DNA of 64,000 nucleotides from Patescibacteria group bacterium. Its GTDB lineage: Bacteria > Patescibacteriota > Saccharimonadia > UBA4664 > SCTI01. Shown here piece after piece: positions 40,081 through 58,137 of this stretch. Numbering within the stretch: position 1 is the first letter of the stretch; each line of letters opens with the position of its first letter. A program made the position numbers and the translations under genes. The stretch spans positions 160-64,159 of the forward strand of contig SCTI01000002.1 of the NCBI GenBank assembly GCA_004297735.1, given 5' to 3'. The notes under the pieces are model-generated. The model was not told where the DNA came from. It saw only the letters and a program-made list of their open reading frames with translations, and made no database searches.

Positions 40081-40152
40081 GGGGCCGAGCTGGTGCTATA
40101 CTTTGGCTTCGTCACCCGCTGTATTGGGGTTCGATTCCCCATAGCTCCACCA
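40081..40152 (+). ncRNA. 72-nt tRNA-Ala/tmRNA-TLD-like mini-RNA; no anticodon/D arms recognisable
   Basis: Acceptor 5' GGGGCCG pairs with 3' TAGCTCC via G3:U70; 37-nt body; T-arm TGGGG-TTCGATT-CCCCA; discriminator A + encoded CCA; 3' end CATAGCTCCACCA identical to tRNA-Ala/tmRNA ends; terminator 13 nt downstream. Confidence 0.5.
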
Positions 40153-40164
40153 GGTTAATAAACA

Positions 40165-40193
40165 AAAATAGCCGCCCGGAGCGGCTATTTTTG
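40165..40193. terminator. Bidirectional intrinsic terminator (AAAAATAGCCGC-ccgga-GCGGCTATTTTT)
   Basis: Perfect 12-nt arms including A/T tracts immediately after the mini-RNA. Confidence 0.7.
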
Positions 40194-40317
40194 TAGTCAG
40201 TGTTGTCGGGCCAGTGCCACAGCTCCACCAGATACATTCGATACCTTTGTATCGATTTGATTGTAGCGCATTCTACTCCTTGACGCCATCCCCTTTTTCA
40301 GGTAAGATGGTCGAGTT

Positions 40318-51109: not shown

Positions 51110-52222
51110 CTACGACCCAAACTGAATCTTTTTACGCCTAATCGCGATCGATTCCAGAAGGCCGACTGCGATTAGCGACACCAACAAGCTGGTGCCTCCG
51201 TAGCTGATAAATGGCAGTGGAATACCGGTCACCGGCATCAGCCCAATATTCATACCAATATTAATAAACAGGTGGAACAGCAGCATGGTGACCACGCCGA
51301 CCGCTACAAACACCCCAAAACGATCTTCGGCTCTTGAAGCAATGTAGATCCCGCGTAGCAACAGTACGGTAAATAGCAGTAGCACGATCAGGCCGCCAAT
51401 AAATCCCATTTTTTCGCTTAACACCGCAAAAATAAAATCGGTGTGTTGTGATGGTAAAAAGTTAAGTTGCGACTGACTACCGGCGGCCAACCCGCGCCCG
51501 TACAGCTGCCCACTACCCACCGCGATCGTAGACTGAACCACGTTGTAGCCGGTGCTAAGCGGGTCGGCGGTTGGGTTTAAGAACACCTCTAGACGGGCGC
51601 GCTGGTACGGTTTAAGCACAAACTGGATAAAGATTGGCAGGCTTACCACGGCGGCACCAAACAGCGCCGCAAAGTAGGTCCAGCGCACCTGGGCCATTAT
51701 CGCCATTACCAGCCAAATAGCACCAAACACTAGGGCCGTTCCTAGGTCTGGCTGAGCCAACACCAGCAGGCCAGGGACCGCCACATACAGTAACGAGATC
51801 GCCACCGGGCGAATTCGATCCATTGAGTCATAGTTGGCACTAAAGTACTTAGCCAACACCAAGATCATCACAATCTTAGCGAACTCCGATGGCTGAAACT
51901 GGAAAAAGCCAAGATCAATCCACCTGGTAGCACCCAGGGCAGTCTTGCCCAATACAAAAACCGCCAACAAGCTGACCAACATCGCCACATACAAAACCGG
52001 GGTAACCTTGCTCCAGCCACGGTAGTCCATGCGCGCCGCAAGCCCGAACCCAACCAACGCAATAACTAAAAAATAAACTTGGTGAGCAGCGTCCACCGGC
52101 GCAACCAAGTTAGCCGCCTTAAACGAGGTTGAGTAGATTACCACCACCCCCACAAGAGACAGTGCAAGCGCTGCGCCAAACAGCACCCAATCAAAGTTTT
52201 TCCAGAACCGCGACTTAAACAT
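51110..52222 (-). CDS. SEDS family peptidoglycan glycosyltransferase (RodA/FtsW)
   Basis: 370 aa, 10-TM SEDS topology and motifs; RodA vs FtsW not resolved. Confidence 0.8.
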   Translation of the reverse strand: MFKSRFWKNFDWVLFGAALALSLVGVVVIYSTSFKAANLVAPVDAAHQVYFLVIALVGFGLAARMDYRGWSKVTPVLYVAMLVSLLAVFVLGKTALGATRWIDLGFFQFQPSEFAKIVMILVLAKYFSANYDSMDRIRPVAISLLYVAVPGLLVLAQPDLGTALVFGAIWLVMAIMAQVRWTYFAALFGAAVVSLPIFIQFVLKPYQRARLEVFLNPTADPLSTGYNVVQSTIAVGSGQLYGRGLAAGSQSQLNFLPSQHTDFIFAVLSEKMGFIGGLIVLLLFTVLLLRGIYIASRAEDRFGVFVAVGVVTMLLFHLFINIGMNIGLMPVTGIPLPFISYGGTSLLVSLIAVGLLESIAIRRKKIQFGS

Positions 52223-52467
52223 TAAGTTCTATTATACGCGGTAAGCCGGGTCAACAAAATCTACCAAGACCCTGGTGGAACTGTTGGGGCGCCTCTCTAA
52301 CCCAGATTCTGGCAGATAGCAGTTTTACACGCTATTTGCAGGGTGGGCATTTGACTATCGGATGGCGCTTTGCGCATGCTGAAGACCCACCGATCGGTGG
52401 GTCCCGAGGTCCACTGGCAAGGGGACGCGGGGCAACGTACTACAACCCCGCAAAGGAGGTGGAGTAC

Positions 52468-52653
52468 ATGGGAAAGCCAAAGTTCGACACCCAGTCGAAC
52501 AACTCGAATGCGTGGGTCGGTGTCCGCGAAGGTCAGGACAGATCATCCGGCAAGACGCATACCGAGATCATCGTGCATGACAAGAGCAACAACGATCACG
52601 CTCACGTCGGCATCGATAAGAGCGGCAATCAGATATATCGCCGTGATCGCTAA
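52468..52653 (+). CDS. Hypothetical small polar protein (61 aa)
   Basis: SD AAAGGAGGTG 7 nt before ATG (MGKPKFDTQSNNS...); GC hairpin after stop. Confidence 0.45.
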   Translation: MGKPKFDTQSNNSNAWVGVREGQDRSSGKTHTEIIVHDKSNNDHAHVGIDKSGNQIYRRDR

Positions 52654-52699
52654 ATAGCGACACCGAGGCCCTTCCGGCCTCGGGCCGGGAGGGCCTCAT

Positions 52700-53026
52700 C
52701 TATACGCGGCGCGTCAGGCCATCCTCGCGAGCTACTCCCTCACCGAACGCCGATGCAATCGCGCTGTAGCGCGCGAGGAGCACCAGAGCGTTCGCAATCT
52801 CGCCATGCTCAGCCGGTACGAGAAACTCTCGCATCCACGCTGAGTTCGGAGTCGCAGCCATTATGTCCGCGAGCACAGCAGCCTCTTCGGGATCTGCTGC
52901 CGCCCAACGATCACGAATCAGCTTCGAAGCTTGATCGATCGATCGGTCATCGAAGTCGTCCTCGTCGAAGCGACGGCGCATTTCATCGCGCAGCTCGACC
53001 AAGTCTTGTAATTCACTGTTACCCAT
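52700..53026 (-). CDS. Hypothetical acidic protein (108 aa), islet cargo
   Basis: ORF with G/C-rich third positions; divergent from recombinase gene. Confidence 0.45.
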   Translation of the reverse strand: MGNSELQDLVELRDEMRRRFDEDDFDDRSIDQASKLIRDRWAAADPEEAAVLADIMAATPNSAWMREFLVPAEHGEIANALVLLARYSAIASAFGEGVAREDGLTRRV

Positions 53027-53268
53027 GGCTTTATTGTCGAACAGGCCAGCGACTCATGCAAGCACGAGCGTGTCCAATCGCCCGTCCGATCGCGTCAGAG
53101 TGCTCGCTCCTGAACTTCCCGCATTCAGGCGCTTTCCGCTCGATTAAGGCCTAGGACTATCTAGGGCCCTTTGCCCTCCCTTACTACAAACGCCTCCAGA
53201 TCTGGCAAAATACGTATTGGCTTAACTACTGATACGAGCTAAGATCCTTAACGAAAGGAGGTGCACAT

Positions 53269-55002
53269 ATGAGTGAAAGTGATAAAACTGTGACTCTCGC
53301 TCAAGCGCCCAAGAAGGCGCTGGTGTATCTCCGTGTGTCCTCGGCCCAGCAGGCCGAGACCGACTACGACGTTGAGGGCTTCTCGATCCCAGCTCAGCGC
53401 GAGGCCTGCAGGCGCCGTGCCGCGGAGCTAGAAGCTGAGGTCGAAGCAGACTTCGTCGATCGCGGCGAGTCGGCCAGAAGCGCTGACCGCCCAGCCCTGC
53501 AACGGATGCTGGCCAGGCTTGAAGCCGGCGGCATCGATTACGTCATCGTCCACAAGCTGGATCGACTGGCGCGTAACCGGGCCGACGACGTCGAGATCGC
53601 GATGCGGATCAAGGCAGGCGGTGCGGTGCTGGTCTCCGTCACCGAGAACATCGATGAGACGCCATCCGGGATGTTGGTTCACGGAATCATGTCCTCGATC
53701 GCCGAGTTCTATAGCCGCAACCTGGCCTCAGAGATCGTCAAAGGCTCCCGGCAGAAGGCCAAGAACGGCGGCACGCTGACCCGGGCGCCCATTGGGTACC
53801 TGAACGTGCGCGAGTTCGTAGATGGCCGCGAGATCCGCACTATCGGTATCGACGAGGAACGAGCGCCGTACGTGCAGCTGGCGTTCGAGCTCTACGCCAC
53901 CGGCAACTACTCGCTGTCGCAGCTCTCCACGCTGCTCGAACACCAGGGGCTGCGTTCCCGGGCTACTCGCCGGCGGCCGAGCGTCCCGGTCACGGCCAGC
54001 AAGCTTCAGGCGATTCTGCGCAACCCGTACTACAAGGGCATCGTCTCCTACCAAGGCGAGAGCTTCCCCGGTCGGCATCAGCCGCTCGTTGACGACGATC
54101 TGTTTGAGCGAGTCGGCCAAGTCCTCTCCGGCAAGAAGCTCAGTGGCGAGCGGGACCGCAAGCACCGTCACTACCTCAAGGGCTCGCTCTACTGCGGCGA
54201 GTGCGGCCGCCGTCTGACGTTCAGTCGCAACACCGGCAATGGTGGCTCCTACGACTACTTCGTCTGCAGTGGCAAGCAGCGCAAGACCTGCAGCCAGGGA
54301 TATCTGCGCACCGATCACATCGAGGCTGAGGTCGAGAAGCTCTACGCGACAGTCCAGCTGACGACCAAGCAGCGCGCAGAGATCCGCCGCCTGGTTGAGA
54401 CACACCTCGATGCCATGCGGGCGGTGACCGACGCCGAAGCCAACAAAGCCACGGCTGAGATCACAAAGCTGCTGCGCGAAGAACGCAAGCTGCTTGAGCT
54501 GTACTACGCAGACCTCGTGAGCCGCGAGGCCTACGCCGAAGAGACCAAGCGGATTGCCGACGGCAAGCGGGCCGCCCAGCGACGTATTGACGAAGCTTCA
54601 GGAACTACACAGGAGCTACTCGAGGCACTCAACCGTGCGCTGGAGATGACAACCAACGCGCACAAGACCTACCTGATGTCCGACTTCACCGGACGCCGCC
54701 TAATGAACCAAATGTTCTTCAAGCGGATCGAGGTCAAGGCCGACGAGATCGATGACGTCAAGCTCTCCGACCCCTACGCCCAGCTACTGGCCCAGGACCT
54801 GCTGGCAGAAGCCGAGGAAGCCGCCAGAGAGGCCGCCGCTACCGGCGTCTGGGAGGCCCCGGAACTTCAGGCCGAACCGGCCACAGGGCCCGGAAACCAA
54901 AGAACCCTCGGCCTTTCTTTGGCCGAGGGTTCCATTAGTACTGCTGTCATGGAGCTGTGGGGATTCGAACCCCAAGCACGAAGATTATCGGTCCTTTGCT
55001 AG
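53269..55002 (+). CDS. Large serine recombinase (resolvase/invertase N-domain + recombinase domain + zinc ribbon + coiled coil)
   Basis: LVYLRVSSAQQ catalytic-Ser motif; CGECGRRL...C..C zinc ribbon; 577 aa; last about 17 codons read into the tRNA-like target sequence; SD AAAGGAGGTG. Confidence 0.85.
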   Translation: MSESDKTVTLAQAPKKALVYLRVSSAQQAETDYDVEGFSIPAQREACRRRAAELEAEVEADFVDRGESARSADRPALQRMLARLEAGGIDYVIVHKLDRLARNRADDVEIAMRIKAGGAVLVSVTENIDETPSGMLVHGIMSSIAEFYSRNLASEIVKGSRQKAKNGGTLTRAPIGYLNVREFVDGREIRTIGIDEERAPYVQLAFELYATGNYSLSQLSTLLEHQGLRSRATRRRPSVPVTASKLQAILRNPYYKGIVSYQGESFPGRHQPLVDDDLFERVGQVLSGKKLSGERDRKHRHYLKGSLYCGECGRRLTFSRNTGNGGSYDYFVCSGKQRKTCSQGYLRTDHIEAEVEKLYATVQLTTKQRAEIRRLVETHLDAMRAVTDAEANKATAEITKLLREERKLLELYYADLVSREAYAEETKRIADGKRAAQRRIDEASGTTQELLEALNRALEMTTNAHKTYLMSDFTGRRLMNQMFFKRIEVKADEIDDVKLSDPYAQLLAQDLLAEAEEAAREAAATGVWEAPELQAEPATGPGNQRTLGLSLAEGSISTAVMELWGFEPQARRLSVLC

Positions 55003-55016
55003 ACCAACTCAGCCCC
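54950..55016 (-). ncRNA. Truncated tRNA-Ala/tmRNA-TLD-like mini-gene (paralog of 40081-40152), 3' CCA region replaced by islet
   Basis: minus sense GGGGCTG-AGTTGGTCTAGCAAAGGACCGATAATCTTCGTGCT-TGGGG-TTCGAAT-CCCCA-CAGCTCC-A; G3:U70; body and T-arm homologous to the 40.08-kb copy. Confidence 0.45.
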
Positions 55017-55144
55017 GCGTAAAAGCCATTGCTACCACCAAGGCATTTACAGTATTTCAAACAGTTATTAACAAAAAATTATCGATTTGACATGGAATGC
55101 AAAAATGTTAATCTATATCTGTACGAGGATTATCGGTCCTACCT

Positions 55145-55173
55145 AAAAAACCGGCCATCATGGCCGGTTTTTT
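55145..55173. terminator. Bidirectional intrinsic terminator (AAAAAACCGGCCA-tca-TGGCCGGTTTTTT)
   Basis: 3' of ileS on minus strand and 3' of islet on plus strand. Confidence 0.75.
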
Positions 55174-55185
55174 AGTGCCTATTTT

Positions 55186-58137
55186 TTAGCTCTTCTTCAA
55201 CGAGATTATCAGCTCTTCCCCATCAACTTTGGTGTGCTGCGTATCCTCAAAGTGATCCGAACCGCTCGTCACCTTCTCCGCCAAAACCTCTTGGGCAATT
55301 GTCGCCTGATGCTCTTTGAGGGCCTCGCTGAGATCTTTTGCTTCACCGACTACGTCAAAGTTGAGCTCGATTCGGTCATCAACTTGGAGACCAGCCCGTT
55401 TACGCAAGTTCTGAACATGGCGAACCACATCGCGCATGATGCCCTCGCGCTTGAGTTCGGGAGTGATAGTGGTGTTAATCTCTACACCTGATTTGTACTC
55501 ACCAGACGCCCTCTCGAACTTGACCTCCTTAACGTTCAGCTCTTCTTTAGCGATATTTAATAAACTTTCTTCCAATGGATCTGTCCACTGCAGCGTAGCC
55601 ATACTGAGTGGCTGACGAACCTTGATACCCGTGCCTCTTGCCCTGAGCTCGAGCCCCTGGGTAATGAGCCTTCGTAGAACGGTCATGCGTTCTAATAAAT
55701 CCTCATCAATCTCCCCGGTCTCCGGCCAGTCGCTCAGATGAACCGAAGCTGGAACGTCCATACCGGCAGTCAGCTCGCGCCACAGCTTATCGGACACAAA
55801 TGGACTCCACGGCGCCAGTAGCTGCGCGATTCGCGCCATGGCGTAATGCAGCGTGGCGTAGGCGGCCTGCTTGTCGCCATCATCCTCACTCTTCCAAAAG
55901 CGGCGGCGACTGCGGCGCACGTACCAGTTAGACAGATCATCGATCAGCTCGCGAATTGGACGGGTCGCCTTAGCGATTTGGTAGGCATCGGCCTGCTTGG
56001 TCGATTCGGCAATGGTTTGGTTGAGGCGAGCGAGTAGCCACTGGTCCAAAATGTTGTCGCTGTCTGGCTGGGTTAGAGTTTTTGGCGGCTGCCAGTTGTC
56101 TACCTCGGCGTAGGTACTAAAGAAGCTATACACGTTCCAGAGTCGAAGGAAAACGTTGCGCGCGGTCTCCTGCACGGCCTCGGACGAAAAACGAACATCC
56201 TCACCGGCCACAACCGGGCTCGACATCAAGAAGAAGCGCAGACTATCGGCACCCTGCGTACTAAAGAGCTCGGCTGGATCGGGGTAATTTTTTAATCGTT
56301 TACTCAGCTTTTTGCCATCGGCGGCCAGGACGAGCCCGTTCACGACCACGTTTTTATAGGCCGGCTTATCCATTAGGGCGGTCCCGAGTACGTGTAGGGT
56401 GTAGAACCAGCCGCGAGTCTGGTCCAGACCTTCGGCAATAAACTCAGCCGGGAAGGCCTTGGCGAAGCCATCTTTATGCTCAAACGGATAGTGATCCTGG
56501 GCGTATGGCATCGCCCCGCTCTCAAACCAACAGTCAAACACCTCTTCGGTGCGTTTGTAGGTTTTACCATCGCGTTTAATAACGATTTCATCAATGCCGG
56601 GACGGTGCAGATCAAACTCTTTATCGTGGCCACTGAGCTCACGGAGTTCGTCGAGACTACTAATGACGATGATGTCCTCAGTATCCTCCACGTTCACCCA
56701 AATTGGTAGCGGCGCGCCCCAGAACCGGTTGCGGCTAAAGTTCCAGTCACGCGCGTCGGCCAGCCAGTTACCAAAGCGACCTTGTTTAATGTGATCTGGC
56801 ACCCAGTTAACCTGGTTGTTGTTGGCGACCAGTTTTTCGCGCAGATCGGTTACCTTAATAAACCAGCTTGGAGTCGCAAAGTACATCAGCGGAGTCTCAC
56901 AGCGCCAGCAGAACGGGTAGGTGTGCTCAAAGGTTTCGGCGGCGAAGATGCGGCCCTTGGCGGTCAGGTCGGCGATAATGTGTGGGTCGGCGTCCTTAAA
57001 GAAGGTGCCAACGATTGATTCCAGGCCGTCAACTTGCTTGAGAGCTTCAACCATGACGCCAAATCCGTCCACGCTTTCGATGAGCGGCAGATTTTCGCGC
57101 TTACCAAGCTCTAGGTCGGTCTCGCCATAGCGCGGCGCGACATGGAGGACCCCGGTGCCGTCTTCAAGGCTAACCGAGTCATCGGCGTAGACTTGATGCG
57201 CATTATTAAGCTGGGCTTCGTCGGTTACTGCGAGCTTATACAGCGGCAGATACCGCTTGCCCACCAAATCGCTTCCTTTGTGCTCTGCGACCACCTTGTA
57301 GTCGGCTTTGCGCAGCTCCAGCTCGCTTAGGCGCTTCTTAGCCAAGATGAGTCGCTCGCCTCGCTTCCACTCCTCACCTTCACCCGAATTGGTCAGCTCA
57401 ACCGTGACGTATTCAGCTTTTACGTCAACCGCCAGAGCAGCGTTAGCTGGCAATGTCCACGGCGTAGTGGTCCAGGCAAGCAGCGAGGTGTTTTCATCAT
57501 CTTTTAATTGGAACTTAACGTAAACGCTGGGGTCGGGCACGTTATCTTTGTAGTTTTGATTAACCTCAAAGTTACTTAAGGTGGTGGCGCAACGCGGACA
57601 GTACGGGCTAGAACGAAAACCGCGGTAAACCAATCCTTTTTCGTGCAGCTGACTCAACACCCACCAGACGCTTTCAATGTAGTTATCGTCCAGGGTGGCA
57701 TAGGAGTTTTCTTGATCGCTCCAGCGACCCAGGCGAGTCATAAACTCTTCCCACTCATTCTTATACTTAAAGACGCTGGCGCGGGCAGCTTCATTAAACT
57801 TATCTACACCAAGCTCCAGAATCTGGCGCTTGCTGGTTATGCCTAGCTGTTTTTCAACCTCATTTTCAACCGGTAAACCATGGGTGTCCCAGCCGTTGCG
57901 GCGCGGGACATAGTAGCCGCGCATGGTTTTATAGCGGGTGATTGAATCTTTTTCGGTCAGAGCCACCACGTGACCATAGTGCGGCAAGCCGTTGGCAAAT
58001 GGCGGGCCGTCATAAAAGCTGAATCGATCGCTGCCCTGACGCTGCTCAACGCTTTGTTCGAAGGTTTTTTCATCCTTCCAAGTCTTGAGCATCTCGGCTT
58101 CGAAGGCGGGAAAGTCGGCTGGCTGGGCTTTTTTCAT
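55186..58137 (-). CDS. ileS: Isoleucine--tRNA ligase (type 2, eukaryote-like)
   Basis: 983 aa; GPPFANGLPHYGH (HIGH) and KLSKR (KMSKS-like); size and N-terminus typical of type-2 IleRS. Confidence 0.9.
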   Translation of the reverse strand: MKKAQPADFPAFEAEMLKTWKDEKTFEQSVEQRQGSDRFSFYDGPPFANGLPHYGHVVALTEKDSITRYKTMRGYYVPRRNGWDTHGLPVENEVEKQLGITSKRQILELGVDKFNEAARASVFKYKNEWEEFMTRLGRWSDQENSYATLDDNYIESVWWVLSQLHEKGLVYRGFRSSPYCPRCATTLSNFEVNQNYKDNVPDPSVYVKFQLKDDENTSLLAWTTTPWTLPANAALAVDVKAEYVTVELTNSGEGEEWKRGERLILAKKRLSELELRKADYKVVAEHKGSDLVGKRYLPLYKLAVTDEAQLNNAHQVYADDSVSLEDGTGVLHVAPRYGETDLELGKRENLPLIESVDGFGVMVEALKQVDGLESIVGTFFKDADPHIIADLTAKGRIFAAETFEHTYPFCWRCETPLMYFATPSWFIKVTDLREKLVANNNQVNWVPDHIKQGRFGNWLADARDWNFSRNRFWGAPLPIWVNVEDTEDIIVISSLDELRELSGHDKEFDLHRPGIDEIVIKRDGKTYKRTEEVFDCWFESGAMPYAQDHYPFEHKDGFAKAFPAEFIAEGLDQTRGWFYTLHVLGTALMDKPAYKNVVVNGLVLAADGKKLSKRLKNYPDPAELFSTQGADSLRFFLMSSPVVAGEDVRFSSEAVQETARNVFLRLWNVYSFFSTYAEVDNWQPPKTLTQPDSDNILDQWLLARLNQTIAESTKQADAYQIAKATRPIRELIDDLSNWYVRRSRRRFWKSEDDGDKQAAYATLHYAMARIAQLLAPWSPFVSDKLWRELTAGMDVPASVHLSDWPETGEIDEDLLERMTVLRRLITQGLELRARGTGIKVRQPLSMATLQWTDPLEESLLNIAKEELNVKEVKFERASGEYKSGVEINTTITPELKREGIMRDVVRHVQNLRKRAGLQVDDRIELNFDVVGEAKDLSEALKEHQATIAQEVLAEKVTSGSDHFEDTQHTKVDGEELIISLKKS

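Follow-up and report, generated by a model that had tools for sequence, protein, structure and literature searches.

In about 18 Saccharimonadia species the ileS stop codon lies 18–70 bp from the rodA start, with nothing in the gap. What, then, fills the 2,963 bp between the same two genes in the 64-kb stretch of DNA analysed here (the window)? Judged by the best matches of its RodA (TAK88847.1), L21, IleS and YggT proteins, all in Saccharimonadia metagenome-assembled genomes, the window belongs to a Saccharimonadia genome (TM7, candidate phyla radiation (CPR)), and the short gap in so many relatives implies that its whole spacer content was derived in its own lineage. A first-pass annotation had described a high-GC block between rodA and ileS, with a 577-aa large serine recombinase (LSR) and two small open reading frames (ORFs), inserted into the 3′ end of a 67-nt minus-strand RNA gene. 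Both are present, with small coordinate corrections; the RNA gene, here called the minigene, stands at its right edge with the reported G3:U70 pair, T arm and discriminator A. Very probably, a small element comprising the LSR gene and a two-gene cassette was integrated by serine-recombinase site-specific recombination at the 3′ end of this minigene, which served as the attachment site attB.

The islet, its junctions and the empty sites

The spacer and its flanking genes contain the following features; relatives are cited by locus labels (L150 and so on).

51110–52222, minus strand: rodA (FtsW/RodA/SpoVE family), the left host gene (Pfam PF01098, E 2e-107; orthologues in more than 20 Saccharimonadia loci)
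52223–52275, minus strand: displaced host DNA, with the native minigene CCA (52273–52275), the hairpin/U-tract trailer and the rodA −10 region ACCGCGTATAAT
52276–52279, no strand: left core copy TGGA (TCCA in RNA sense), the only stretch common to both junctions between the B-type and P-type mismatches
52280–52305, no strand: distal attP arm (P′), ACTGTTGGGGCGCC... (CCCCAACAGTT in RNA sense), which imperfectly mimics the target T stem and acceptor 3′ strand
52468–52653, plus strand: cargo ORF orf61, 61 aa (gene also called in an identical Logan contig; homologue in L151)
52700–53026, minus strand: cargo ORF orf108, 108 aa, convergent with orf61; a conserved pair
53269–55002, plus strand: LSR, 577 aa (PF00239, PF07508, PF13408; PHROG 95), its last 17 codons antisense to the minigene
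54901–54949, no strand: element-proximal arm, with a conserved 12–13-bp hairpin (54901–54933) and the attP P arm (...ATTAGTACTGCTGTCA)
54950–55016, minus strand (read from 55016 to 54950): the minigene, 67 nt, resembling tRNA-Ala and the tRNA-like domain of transfer-messenger RNA (tmRNA), recognised by an ends-only match to the Rfam tmRNA model, its fold, orthologues in L150 and L152, and a paralogue
55186–58137, minus strand: ileS, the right host gene (Pfam tRNA-synt_1/Anticodon_1 on the called gene)

Closer relatives were found by a RodA protein search (84–89% identity), and their contigs were compared with the window. Two of them, L150 and L152, carry an orthologous 67-nt minigene at the same ileS–rodA locus without recombinase or islet DNA. 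It reads GGGGCUG...CAGCUCCACCA, ends CAGCTCCACCA and is followed by the hairpin/U-tract and the rodA −10 block. The window sequence from 52275 to 52223 aligns with what follows the intact minigene in these genomes, and the −10 block ACCGCGTATAAT is kept in L144, L147, L148 and L150. In L144 and L147 the ileS terminator and an adjacent conserved block are present and the minigene is absent; L148, with a spacer of 19 bp, also lacks it. The minigenes that stand without an islet in L150 and L152 identify this RNA as a lineage-specific host gene and the GC-rich block as an insertion in its 3′ end. Uninterrupted and CCA-ending, with no GC-rich genes at the locus, they bear out the site-specific integration proposed at first pass. 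The base composition changes at the same place: GC is 0.605 in 52291–54949 and 0.53–0.57 in the flanks, and host-level values resume at 54950.

The islet measures 2,674 bp (52276–54949, core counted once). In RNA sense, the right junction reads ...CCCCA CAGCTCCA|TGACAGCAGTACTAAT..., with the element side beginning TGACAG and the right core copy (54950–54953) inside the minigene; the left junction reads ...GGCGCCCCAACAGTTCCA|CCAGGGTCTTGG..., in short form CAGTTCCA|CCAGGG. The host type is marked by the C of GCTCC and by CCAGGG after the core, the element type by the T of GTTCC and by TGACAG after it. Because the two types switch across the common TCCA, the exchange lies within those four bases, and the predicted position of the crossover is inside acceptor positions 70–72 plus the discriminator. 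The earlier view of CAACAGTTCCACCAGG (minus sense, 52271–52286), at the left edge, as the displaced 3′ terminus of the RNA stands in part: from CCA onward this is host DNA, whereas CCCCAACAGTT is the attP mimic of the element. Comparison with L150 and L152 shows that this arm is not host DNA; 13 of its 14 positions agree with the 3′ end of the target when one indel is allowed.

Terminal repeats of 13 nt or more do not flank the islet, which fits a serine recombinase. The reconstructed attP is ...GTACTGCTGTCA-TGGA-ACTGTTGGGGCGCC... and the reconstructed attB is ...AAGACCCTGG-TGGA-GCTGTGGGGATTCG... (in RNA sense ...CAGCTCCA-CCAGGGTCTTGG...). The LSR gene straddles attP, so on integration its last 14–17 codons are replaced by codons read antisense from the T arm; the reconstructed excised form has 574 aa and ends ...VMELLGRLSNPDSGR, and the integrated form has 577 aa and ends ...VMELWGFEPQARRLSVLC. 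The reading of this ORF through the junction, already noticed at first pass, is its antisense run into the RNA gene.

These junctions suggest how the present arrangement may have arisen. The host attB would be the 3′ end of the 67-nt anticodon-less minigene in the ileS–rodA spacer, with a 2-bp crossover within TCCA, across the last acceptor-stem bases and the discriminator. The minigene retains everything up to A73; its encoded CCA and native hairpin/U-tract trailer now lie 2.7 kb away beside rodA. The conserved hairpin of the element stands 16 nt downstream in their stead, and the pairing of trailer CCACCAGGG with the leader CCUUGGUGG was probably lost. The rodA gene has its −10 block, now at a distance of 2.7 kb from ileS and the minigene. 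The LSR itself presumably catalysed the insertion and is presumably still active, and the RNA would stay functional after post-transcriptional re-addition of CCA.

The recombinase clade, the cargo and the origin of the islet

The first-pass assignment to serine rather than tyrosine recombinases agrees with the domains of the protein: Resolvase (PF00239, E 2.5e-33, residues 17–168), followed in the C-terminal part by Recombinase (PF07508, E 2e-13) and Zn_ribbon_recom (PF13408, E 3e-12). It also matches PHROG 95 ‘integrase’ (E 6e-97), and no Phage_integrase (tyrosine recombinase) domain occurs among the islet proteins. The LSR is intact and full length, not a pseudogene, and has every residue that is invariant across 30 homologues, including Y20, R22, S24 and Q28.

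More than 5,000 homologues are found at E <1e-20, the top 120 being 48–71% identical; most of the clade resides in high-GC contigs, and CPR genomes hold some of its members. The C-terminal consensus of the 30-homologue alignment, ...GSxVxxxVELAGLEPATS, is what the 3′ acceptor strand and T arm of a tRNA encode when translated antisense. A tail of the form G[LFI]EP, corresponding to an antisense T loop, lies in the last 45 residues of 100 of the 120 best homologues. Tails of the GCUCCA type (VEL...) make up about one third, and LVPLRGFEP is the reading in another large group; such classes imply several tRNA species as probable targets.

Whether relatives of the recombinase lie at tRNA 3′ ends, a check suggested at first pass, can be answered at three loci. 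The LSR of L083 (71% identity, host-side GC 0.53) abuts a complete tRNA-Ala(CGC), and that of L085 a complete tRNA-Ala(GGC). In L084 it abuts a 43-nt 3′ half of tRNA-Ala, with the complete gene 3.3 kb further on, past an AbiGi islet. All three show the conserved hairpin, then 7–10 nt, then the 3′ end of an opposite-strand tRNA-Ala, with the spacing and reading frame of the window. The hairpin carries a compensatory T-A/C-G change among these loci, while the peptide that it encodes is poorly conserved; in the window (54901–54933) it is terminator-like on the minus strand, 16 nt past the minigene discriminator. The order in L084 (9685–13041) is LSR element, 43-nt tRNA-Ala 3′ half, 3.2-kb AbiGi islet and complete tRNA-Ala, a tandem that looks like two successive integrations at one tRNA.

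Canonical tRNA-Ala genes with the exact acceptor stem and T arm of the minigene occur in high-GC metagenome contigs; a metagenome scan with these two parts returned only five ordinary tRNA-Ala genes and no further minigene. The minigene would serve as a target because its acceptor and T-arm sequence is that of tRNA-Ala. Recognition of the target is probably by protein, and nothing points to RNA guidance.

The two cargo ORFs, orf61 and orf108, which the first-pass annotation proposed to run through hidden Markov model searches, have no family match in Pfam, PHROGs, NCBIfam or PADLOC. Among 5.8 billion proteins orf108 has only 5 homologues (57–60% identity). The convergent pair recurs at L151 (7001–7589), the sole orf108 homologue read at the DNA level, in a high-GC element with a tyrosine integrase, helix-turn-helix regulators and a methyltransferase. 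The only other contig with islet proteins, the Logan contig, shows an identical arrangement. Foreign origin of the islet is supported by its GC (0.605 against 0.53), by the 18–70-bp gap in about 18 relatives and by the recurrence of the cargo pair in an unrelated high-GC element. Upstream of orf61 in the islet, a perfect 20-nt palindrome (GACCCACCGATCGGTGGGTC, 52384–52403) is a possible operator or binding site.

Site-specific insertion at the minigene draws on the demonstrated anatomy of the islet, the empty sites, the junction logic and the clade-wide geometry. An alternative makes the minigene itself part of a mobile element, the whole 2.96 kb of ileS–rodA content having arrived together. 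The absence of an RNA gene from the closely spaced ileS and rodA of about 18 more distant Saccharimonadia, and from the closer relatives L144, L147 and L148, would agree with such cargo. It is contradicted by L150 and L152, where the minigene occupies the locus without LSR or islet DNA; moreover, the terminator, the promoter-like block and the upstream copy of the minigene loop also occur in L144 and L147, and GC falls to host level exactly where the minigene begins. We regard a joint arrival as extremely improbable. That the islet is the immobile remnant of a larger conjugative or mobilisable element with the same LSR, its transfer genes lost, rather than a minimal autonomous element, is possible, if somewhat doubtful. 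Genes for TrwB-like and Replic_Relax proteins and an N6_N4 methyltransferase lie upstream of the LSR in L084 and L085, HEPN and phage-like genes occur in L083, and the window element holds just two small ORFs besides its LSR. Loss of a larger body is harder to reconcile with two junctions that are consistent with a single clean recombination event, with a full-length LSR and a cargo pair that is itself a conserved module, and with the lack of any truncated-looking islet gene.

Several observations count against insertion by a mobile, tRNA-targeting integrase. Clear inverted-repeat symmetry was not seen in the reconstructed attP, and neither an excised circle nor an unoccupied allele of this very strain was seen. 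The islet has no recognisable recombination directionality factor or transfer genes, and may therefore be a stranded remnant. The distal att sites of L083–L085 were sought in the examined stretches and not found; the distal ends of these elements lie outside them, so the attP mimic is documented for the window element alone. Isolated phages yielded no LSR relative above about 27% identity (nearest phage enzymes about 24–27%); with no isolated-phage or characterised LSR closer than this, the site preference is deduced from genome context only. The LSR scores far under the cut-offs of the NCBIfam Ccr and XisF models. A scan of viral contigs with the single LSR sequence returned nothing; with the LSR alignment it returned only relatives at ≤46% identity, with no full tRNA adjoining and a T-arm tail in 4 of 8.

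Other DNA occupies this spacer in two further genomes. In L152 (7160–9983), an opposite-strand tatA and an 806-aa ORF without a Pfam match lie between the intact minigene and rodA. They sit where the window has its islet, which makes the region just past the minigene a possible hot spot for insertions. In L009 (6655–9900), another Saccharimonadia genome, two glycosyltransferase genes and a hydrolase-like gene are inserted; this 3.3-kb insert was considered as a relative of the islet and rejected as unrelated glycosyltransferase DNA.

The minigene and its candidate partner RNA

In the minigene the acceptor stem (GGGGCUG/CAGCUCC) has 7 bp and includes G3:U70, the T arm reads UGGGG-UUCGAAU-CCCCA and the discriminator is A73. 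An interior of 35 nt takes the place of the D arm, anticodon arm and variable loop of a tRNA, and in the window copy TGA follows the discriminator in place of CCA. Its minimum free energy fold has z = −2.7. Four sequences were compared: the window copy, its orthologues in L152 and L150, and a paralogue elsewhere in the window. Common to them are the acceptor stem, the T arm, a central stem of 4 bp that closes a variable loop, a conserved UUGG connector and A73, and G3:U70 is invariant (4/4). The three copies free of the islet (L150, L152 and the paralogue) encode CCA, whereas the islet has displaced it from the window copy. The alignment, itself fitted to the model, has 98.4% of its cells paired; sliding the partners lowers this to 44–59%. 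Compensatory changes affect 4 pairs, 3 of them in the central stem, among only four sequences.

The RNA-side features outside the islet are as follows.

55017–55062, minus strand: minigene leader, 46 nt, 100% identical to L152 (7047–7092), containing CCUUGGUGG
55087–55178, plus strand: candidate divergent small RNA, with promoter-like TTGACA (55087–55092), 16 nt and TAATCT (55109–55114), and the 18-nt copy described below near its 5′ end
55143–55175, both strands: bidirectional ileS terminator, the 3′ end of the candidate small RNA
40081–40152, plus strand: paralogous minigene, 69 nt plus CCA, with a GNAT gene on one side and rpmE on the other (match to covariance model R1 at 40081–40149: 34.1 bits, E ~2e-6)

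The target is a non-canonical mini-RNA, as the first-pass annotation held. ARAGORN finds no tRNA or tmRNA in the whole window and none in L150; none of the Rfam families scores at its gathering threshold or above in any part of the window, and RF00005 is not among the matches listed. In E-value mode, the Rfam tmRNA model (RF00023, gathering score 47 bits) matches the window minigene by both ends only, with 312 positions skipped (32.6 bits, E 1e-10). The L150 copy scores 41.5 bits, with its central stem aligned to helix P2, and the paralogue 29.7 bits, both below 47. The model ends align to the minigenes with high posterior probability, and 312–320 model positions are replaced by 5–22 nt.

Several tRNA hallmarks are found: the 7-bp acceptor stem, a T arm with a UUCRAAU loop, the discriminator and CCA. 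By the tests run the minigene is nevertheless not a tRNA, having no D stem and no conserved 7-nt anticodon loop or arm. Nor is it a tmRNA by those tests, with no tag ORF or coding domain, no pseudoknots and a score below 47. A tblastn search with an approximate Escherichia coli SmpB query found no SmpB-like ORF in the window or the loci, and the presence of at least two copies in 64 kb, together with absence from relatives, argues against a single essential tmRNA partnered with SmpB. A decoding role was also considered, as the loops read like anticodon loops (GAU, AAC, CAC), and was rejected because no anticodon stem is conserved there. The minigenes appear to form a previously undescribed family of anticodon-less RNAs that look chargeable with alanine.

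The paralogue has G3:U70, a perfect T arm, a central stem AUAC/GUAU and one acceptor-stem mismatch, and is followed by a strong terminator (40162–40194). A 15-nt copy of a minigene 3′ end (CCACAGCTCCACCAG, 40217–40231), 78 nt downstream and identical to the 3′ end of the ileS–rodA minigene, could be an old att remnant. A 15/18 match between the paralogue and the start of the neighbouring GNAT gene is no better than background (rank 1108 of 3196), and no claim is made for it. Weak matches to the minigene model also lie about 1.2 kb upstream of ileS in L011 (5773–5847) and L007 (5463–5538). One is called by ARAGORN as a tRNA-Asp whose anticodon (atc) is odd; the other goes uncalled. These could be tRNAs that are unusual or contain an intron, as described for Patescibacteria (PMC13011429).

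Leader segment CCUUGGUGG is complementary to the minigene 3′ end plus trailer CCACCAGGG, and the two sides change together: GCACUUGGUG/CACCAAGUGC in L150 and GCCUUGGUGG/CCACCAAGGC in L152. A target-site duplication around the minigene (TTGGTGG...TTGGTAG) was rejected, since both copies complement the CCACCA 3′ end, one in the leader and the other on the terminator strand.

The first-pass annotation had further reported an 18-nt direct repeat and suggested scars of repeated integration and excision. The repeat is real, but it is not a scar. Its copies, at 54978–54995 and 55123–55140, are identical at 17 of 18 positions and form the only match pair with three or fewer mismatches in the 64 kb, far beyond chance (0.04 expected; two matches in 0 of 100 shuffles). 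Upstream loop copies are also present in L150, L152 and L144, all without an islet, and they co-vary with the minigene interior; the repeat is thus a property of the host locus. In all three genomes with an ileS–rodA minigene, the loop copy stands just past the ileS terminator, on the same strand. Minigene loop and upstream copy read AGGACCGATAATCCTCGT and AGGACCGATAATCTTCGT in the window, AGACTAACACTCTTCGTGT and GGACTAACACTCTTCGTGT in L152, and ATTCACAACCCTAGC and ATTCACAACCTTAGC in L150.

The window and L152 agree at 87 of 87 positions in the 46-nt leader plus the two arms and at 17 of 26 in the 26-nt interior, with ileS and rodA flanks at 71–77% identity; the upstream copy repeats four of the interior substitutions. 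Ordinary divergence does not explain why the scaffold is unchanged and the loop differs, yet still matches its upstream copy. Gene conversion between minigene loop and upstream copy is one alternative cause of the matching. Mutagenesis of the diversity-generating retroelement type was rejected, as there is no reverse transcriptase and the copies differ by C/T changes that are not adenine-specific. L150 is the closer relative of L152 (rodA 84% nucleotide identity), yet their minigene modules are only 65% identical. The pattern suggests that a module of about 116 nt may have been exchanged laterally, with its loop re-matched to the local upstream copy.

A scan found an orthologous promoter-like site (TTGAC[ACGT], 16–18 nt, TAnnnT) in L152, L150, L144 and L147; TTGACA-16-TAATCT of the window falls under the threshold of the scan tool. 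The site would start a 50–65-nt transcript whose 5′ end complements the loop and whose 3′ end is the ileS terminator. Cognate duplexes in the three genomes reach −36.3, −35.0 and −40.7 kcal/mol, against −15 to −25 for non-cognate combinations and an average of about −15 for shuffles. The 18-nt copy site is the best non-self partner of the loop in the window (rank 3–4 of 3,196 sub-windows). We infer that the minigene and the divergent small RNA are a candidate antisense or sponge pair.

A simpler fate for the RNA would be that of a dead tRNA-Ala or ssrA relic without its middle, kept by chance, with the LSR using a surviving attB-like 3′ end and the repeat and loop variation being functionless. 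The minigene can indeed be aligned to canonical tRNA-Ala if 6 nt are taken as deleted and the anticodon arm as replaced, its absence from L144, L147 and L148 means that it is dispensable, and the promoter scan found no promoter-like site on its own strand. Decay is difficult to square with an acceptor stem, T arm, A73 and CCA that are intact in three orthologues and nearly so in the paralogue, or with the four compensatory pairs and the excess of paired cells over slid controls. The scaffold is moreover invariant between genomes whose flanking genes differ by a quarter or so of their positions, and four loop substitutions recur in a copy 145 bp away. A functionless relic is, on balance, unlikely. 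We propose, tentatively, that the minigene represents a new Saccharimonadia family of alanine-identity tRNA-like RNAs whose loop would pair with the 5′ end of a divergent small RNA. Its specificity would shift between strains on an intact scaffold, and its 3′ end would be a landing site for a clade of tRNA-targeting serine integrases.

Significance and comparison with known systems

Genome engineering relies heavily on serine integrases, a group believed to steer clear of tRNA genes. The filled site, the two empty sites and the tails of 100 of 120 homologues suggest that use of tRNA 3′ ends is a habit of the entire clade. Such use makes its attB sites short, predictable and near-universal, and hence testable as portable landing sites. 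As an island of the t(m)RNA type, the islet is new in its serine recombinase, from an uncharacterised tRNA-targeting clade, and in its target, a non-canonical minigene. If expressed, the minigene would be a new small-RNA class in reduced CPR genomes; the minigene family with its co-varying partner is the newest and least certain part of the finding.

Islands inserted by tyrosine integrases in tRNA and tmRNA 3′ ends are established (Williams 2002; Islander/TIGER, as cited in PMC7192596 and PMC12884075). The window islet resembles them in having the integrase gene at the island end beside the RNA gene, in its insertion at the 3′ end and in leaving the RNA intact up to the discriminator. It differs in its serine enzyme, with a 4-nt core and a 13/14 mimic in place of a long identical direct repeat, in not restoring an encoded CCA, and in an anticodon-less minigene as target. 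Serine-integrase islands in t(m)RNA genes have been identified computationally (14 of 297), a use that ‘has not been reported previously’ and for which experimental proof was said to be needed (Mageeney et al. 2020, PMC7192596). Compared with those TIGER cases, the geometry seen here is clade-wide, with 100 of 120 best homologues, three DNA contexts and a filled/empty site pair.

The enzymes of the phiC31 and Bxb1 types are characterised large serine recombinases. To our knowledge, known members of this group target protein-coding genes or intergenic sites, not tRNA ends. With characterised LSRs (phiFC1/EFC-1 integrase, CcrB/CcrC, XisF) the window enzyme shares a three-domain architecture, the absence of long repeats and a short crossover core; its identity to the nearest phage enzymes is only about 24–27%.

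Reduced tmRNAs without an mRNA-like region are described from jakobid mitochondria (Jacob et al. 2004, as cited in PMC11915505). Like the tRNA-like domain of tmRNA, the minigene combines a G3:U70 acceptor stem and a T arm with a D-loop-like UUGG and ACCA, and has no anticodon arm. Unlike tmRNA, it lacks a tag frame and pseudoknots, has an interior of 35 nt and scores 29.7–41.5 bits, below 47. At least two paralogues occur in 64 kb, close relatives lack it, and its loop is hypervariable. The 3′ external transcribed spacer of the E. coli glyW-cysT-leuZ precursor is a tRNA-linked RNA sponge. As in that sponge, a tRNA-type transcript here carries a stretch complementary to a small RNA, both RNAs being predicted. 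In contrast to it, the complementary stretch would replace the anticodon arm within a tRNA-like body, and its partner would be encoded adjacent to it on the other strand.

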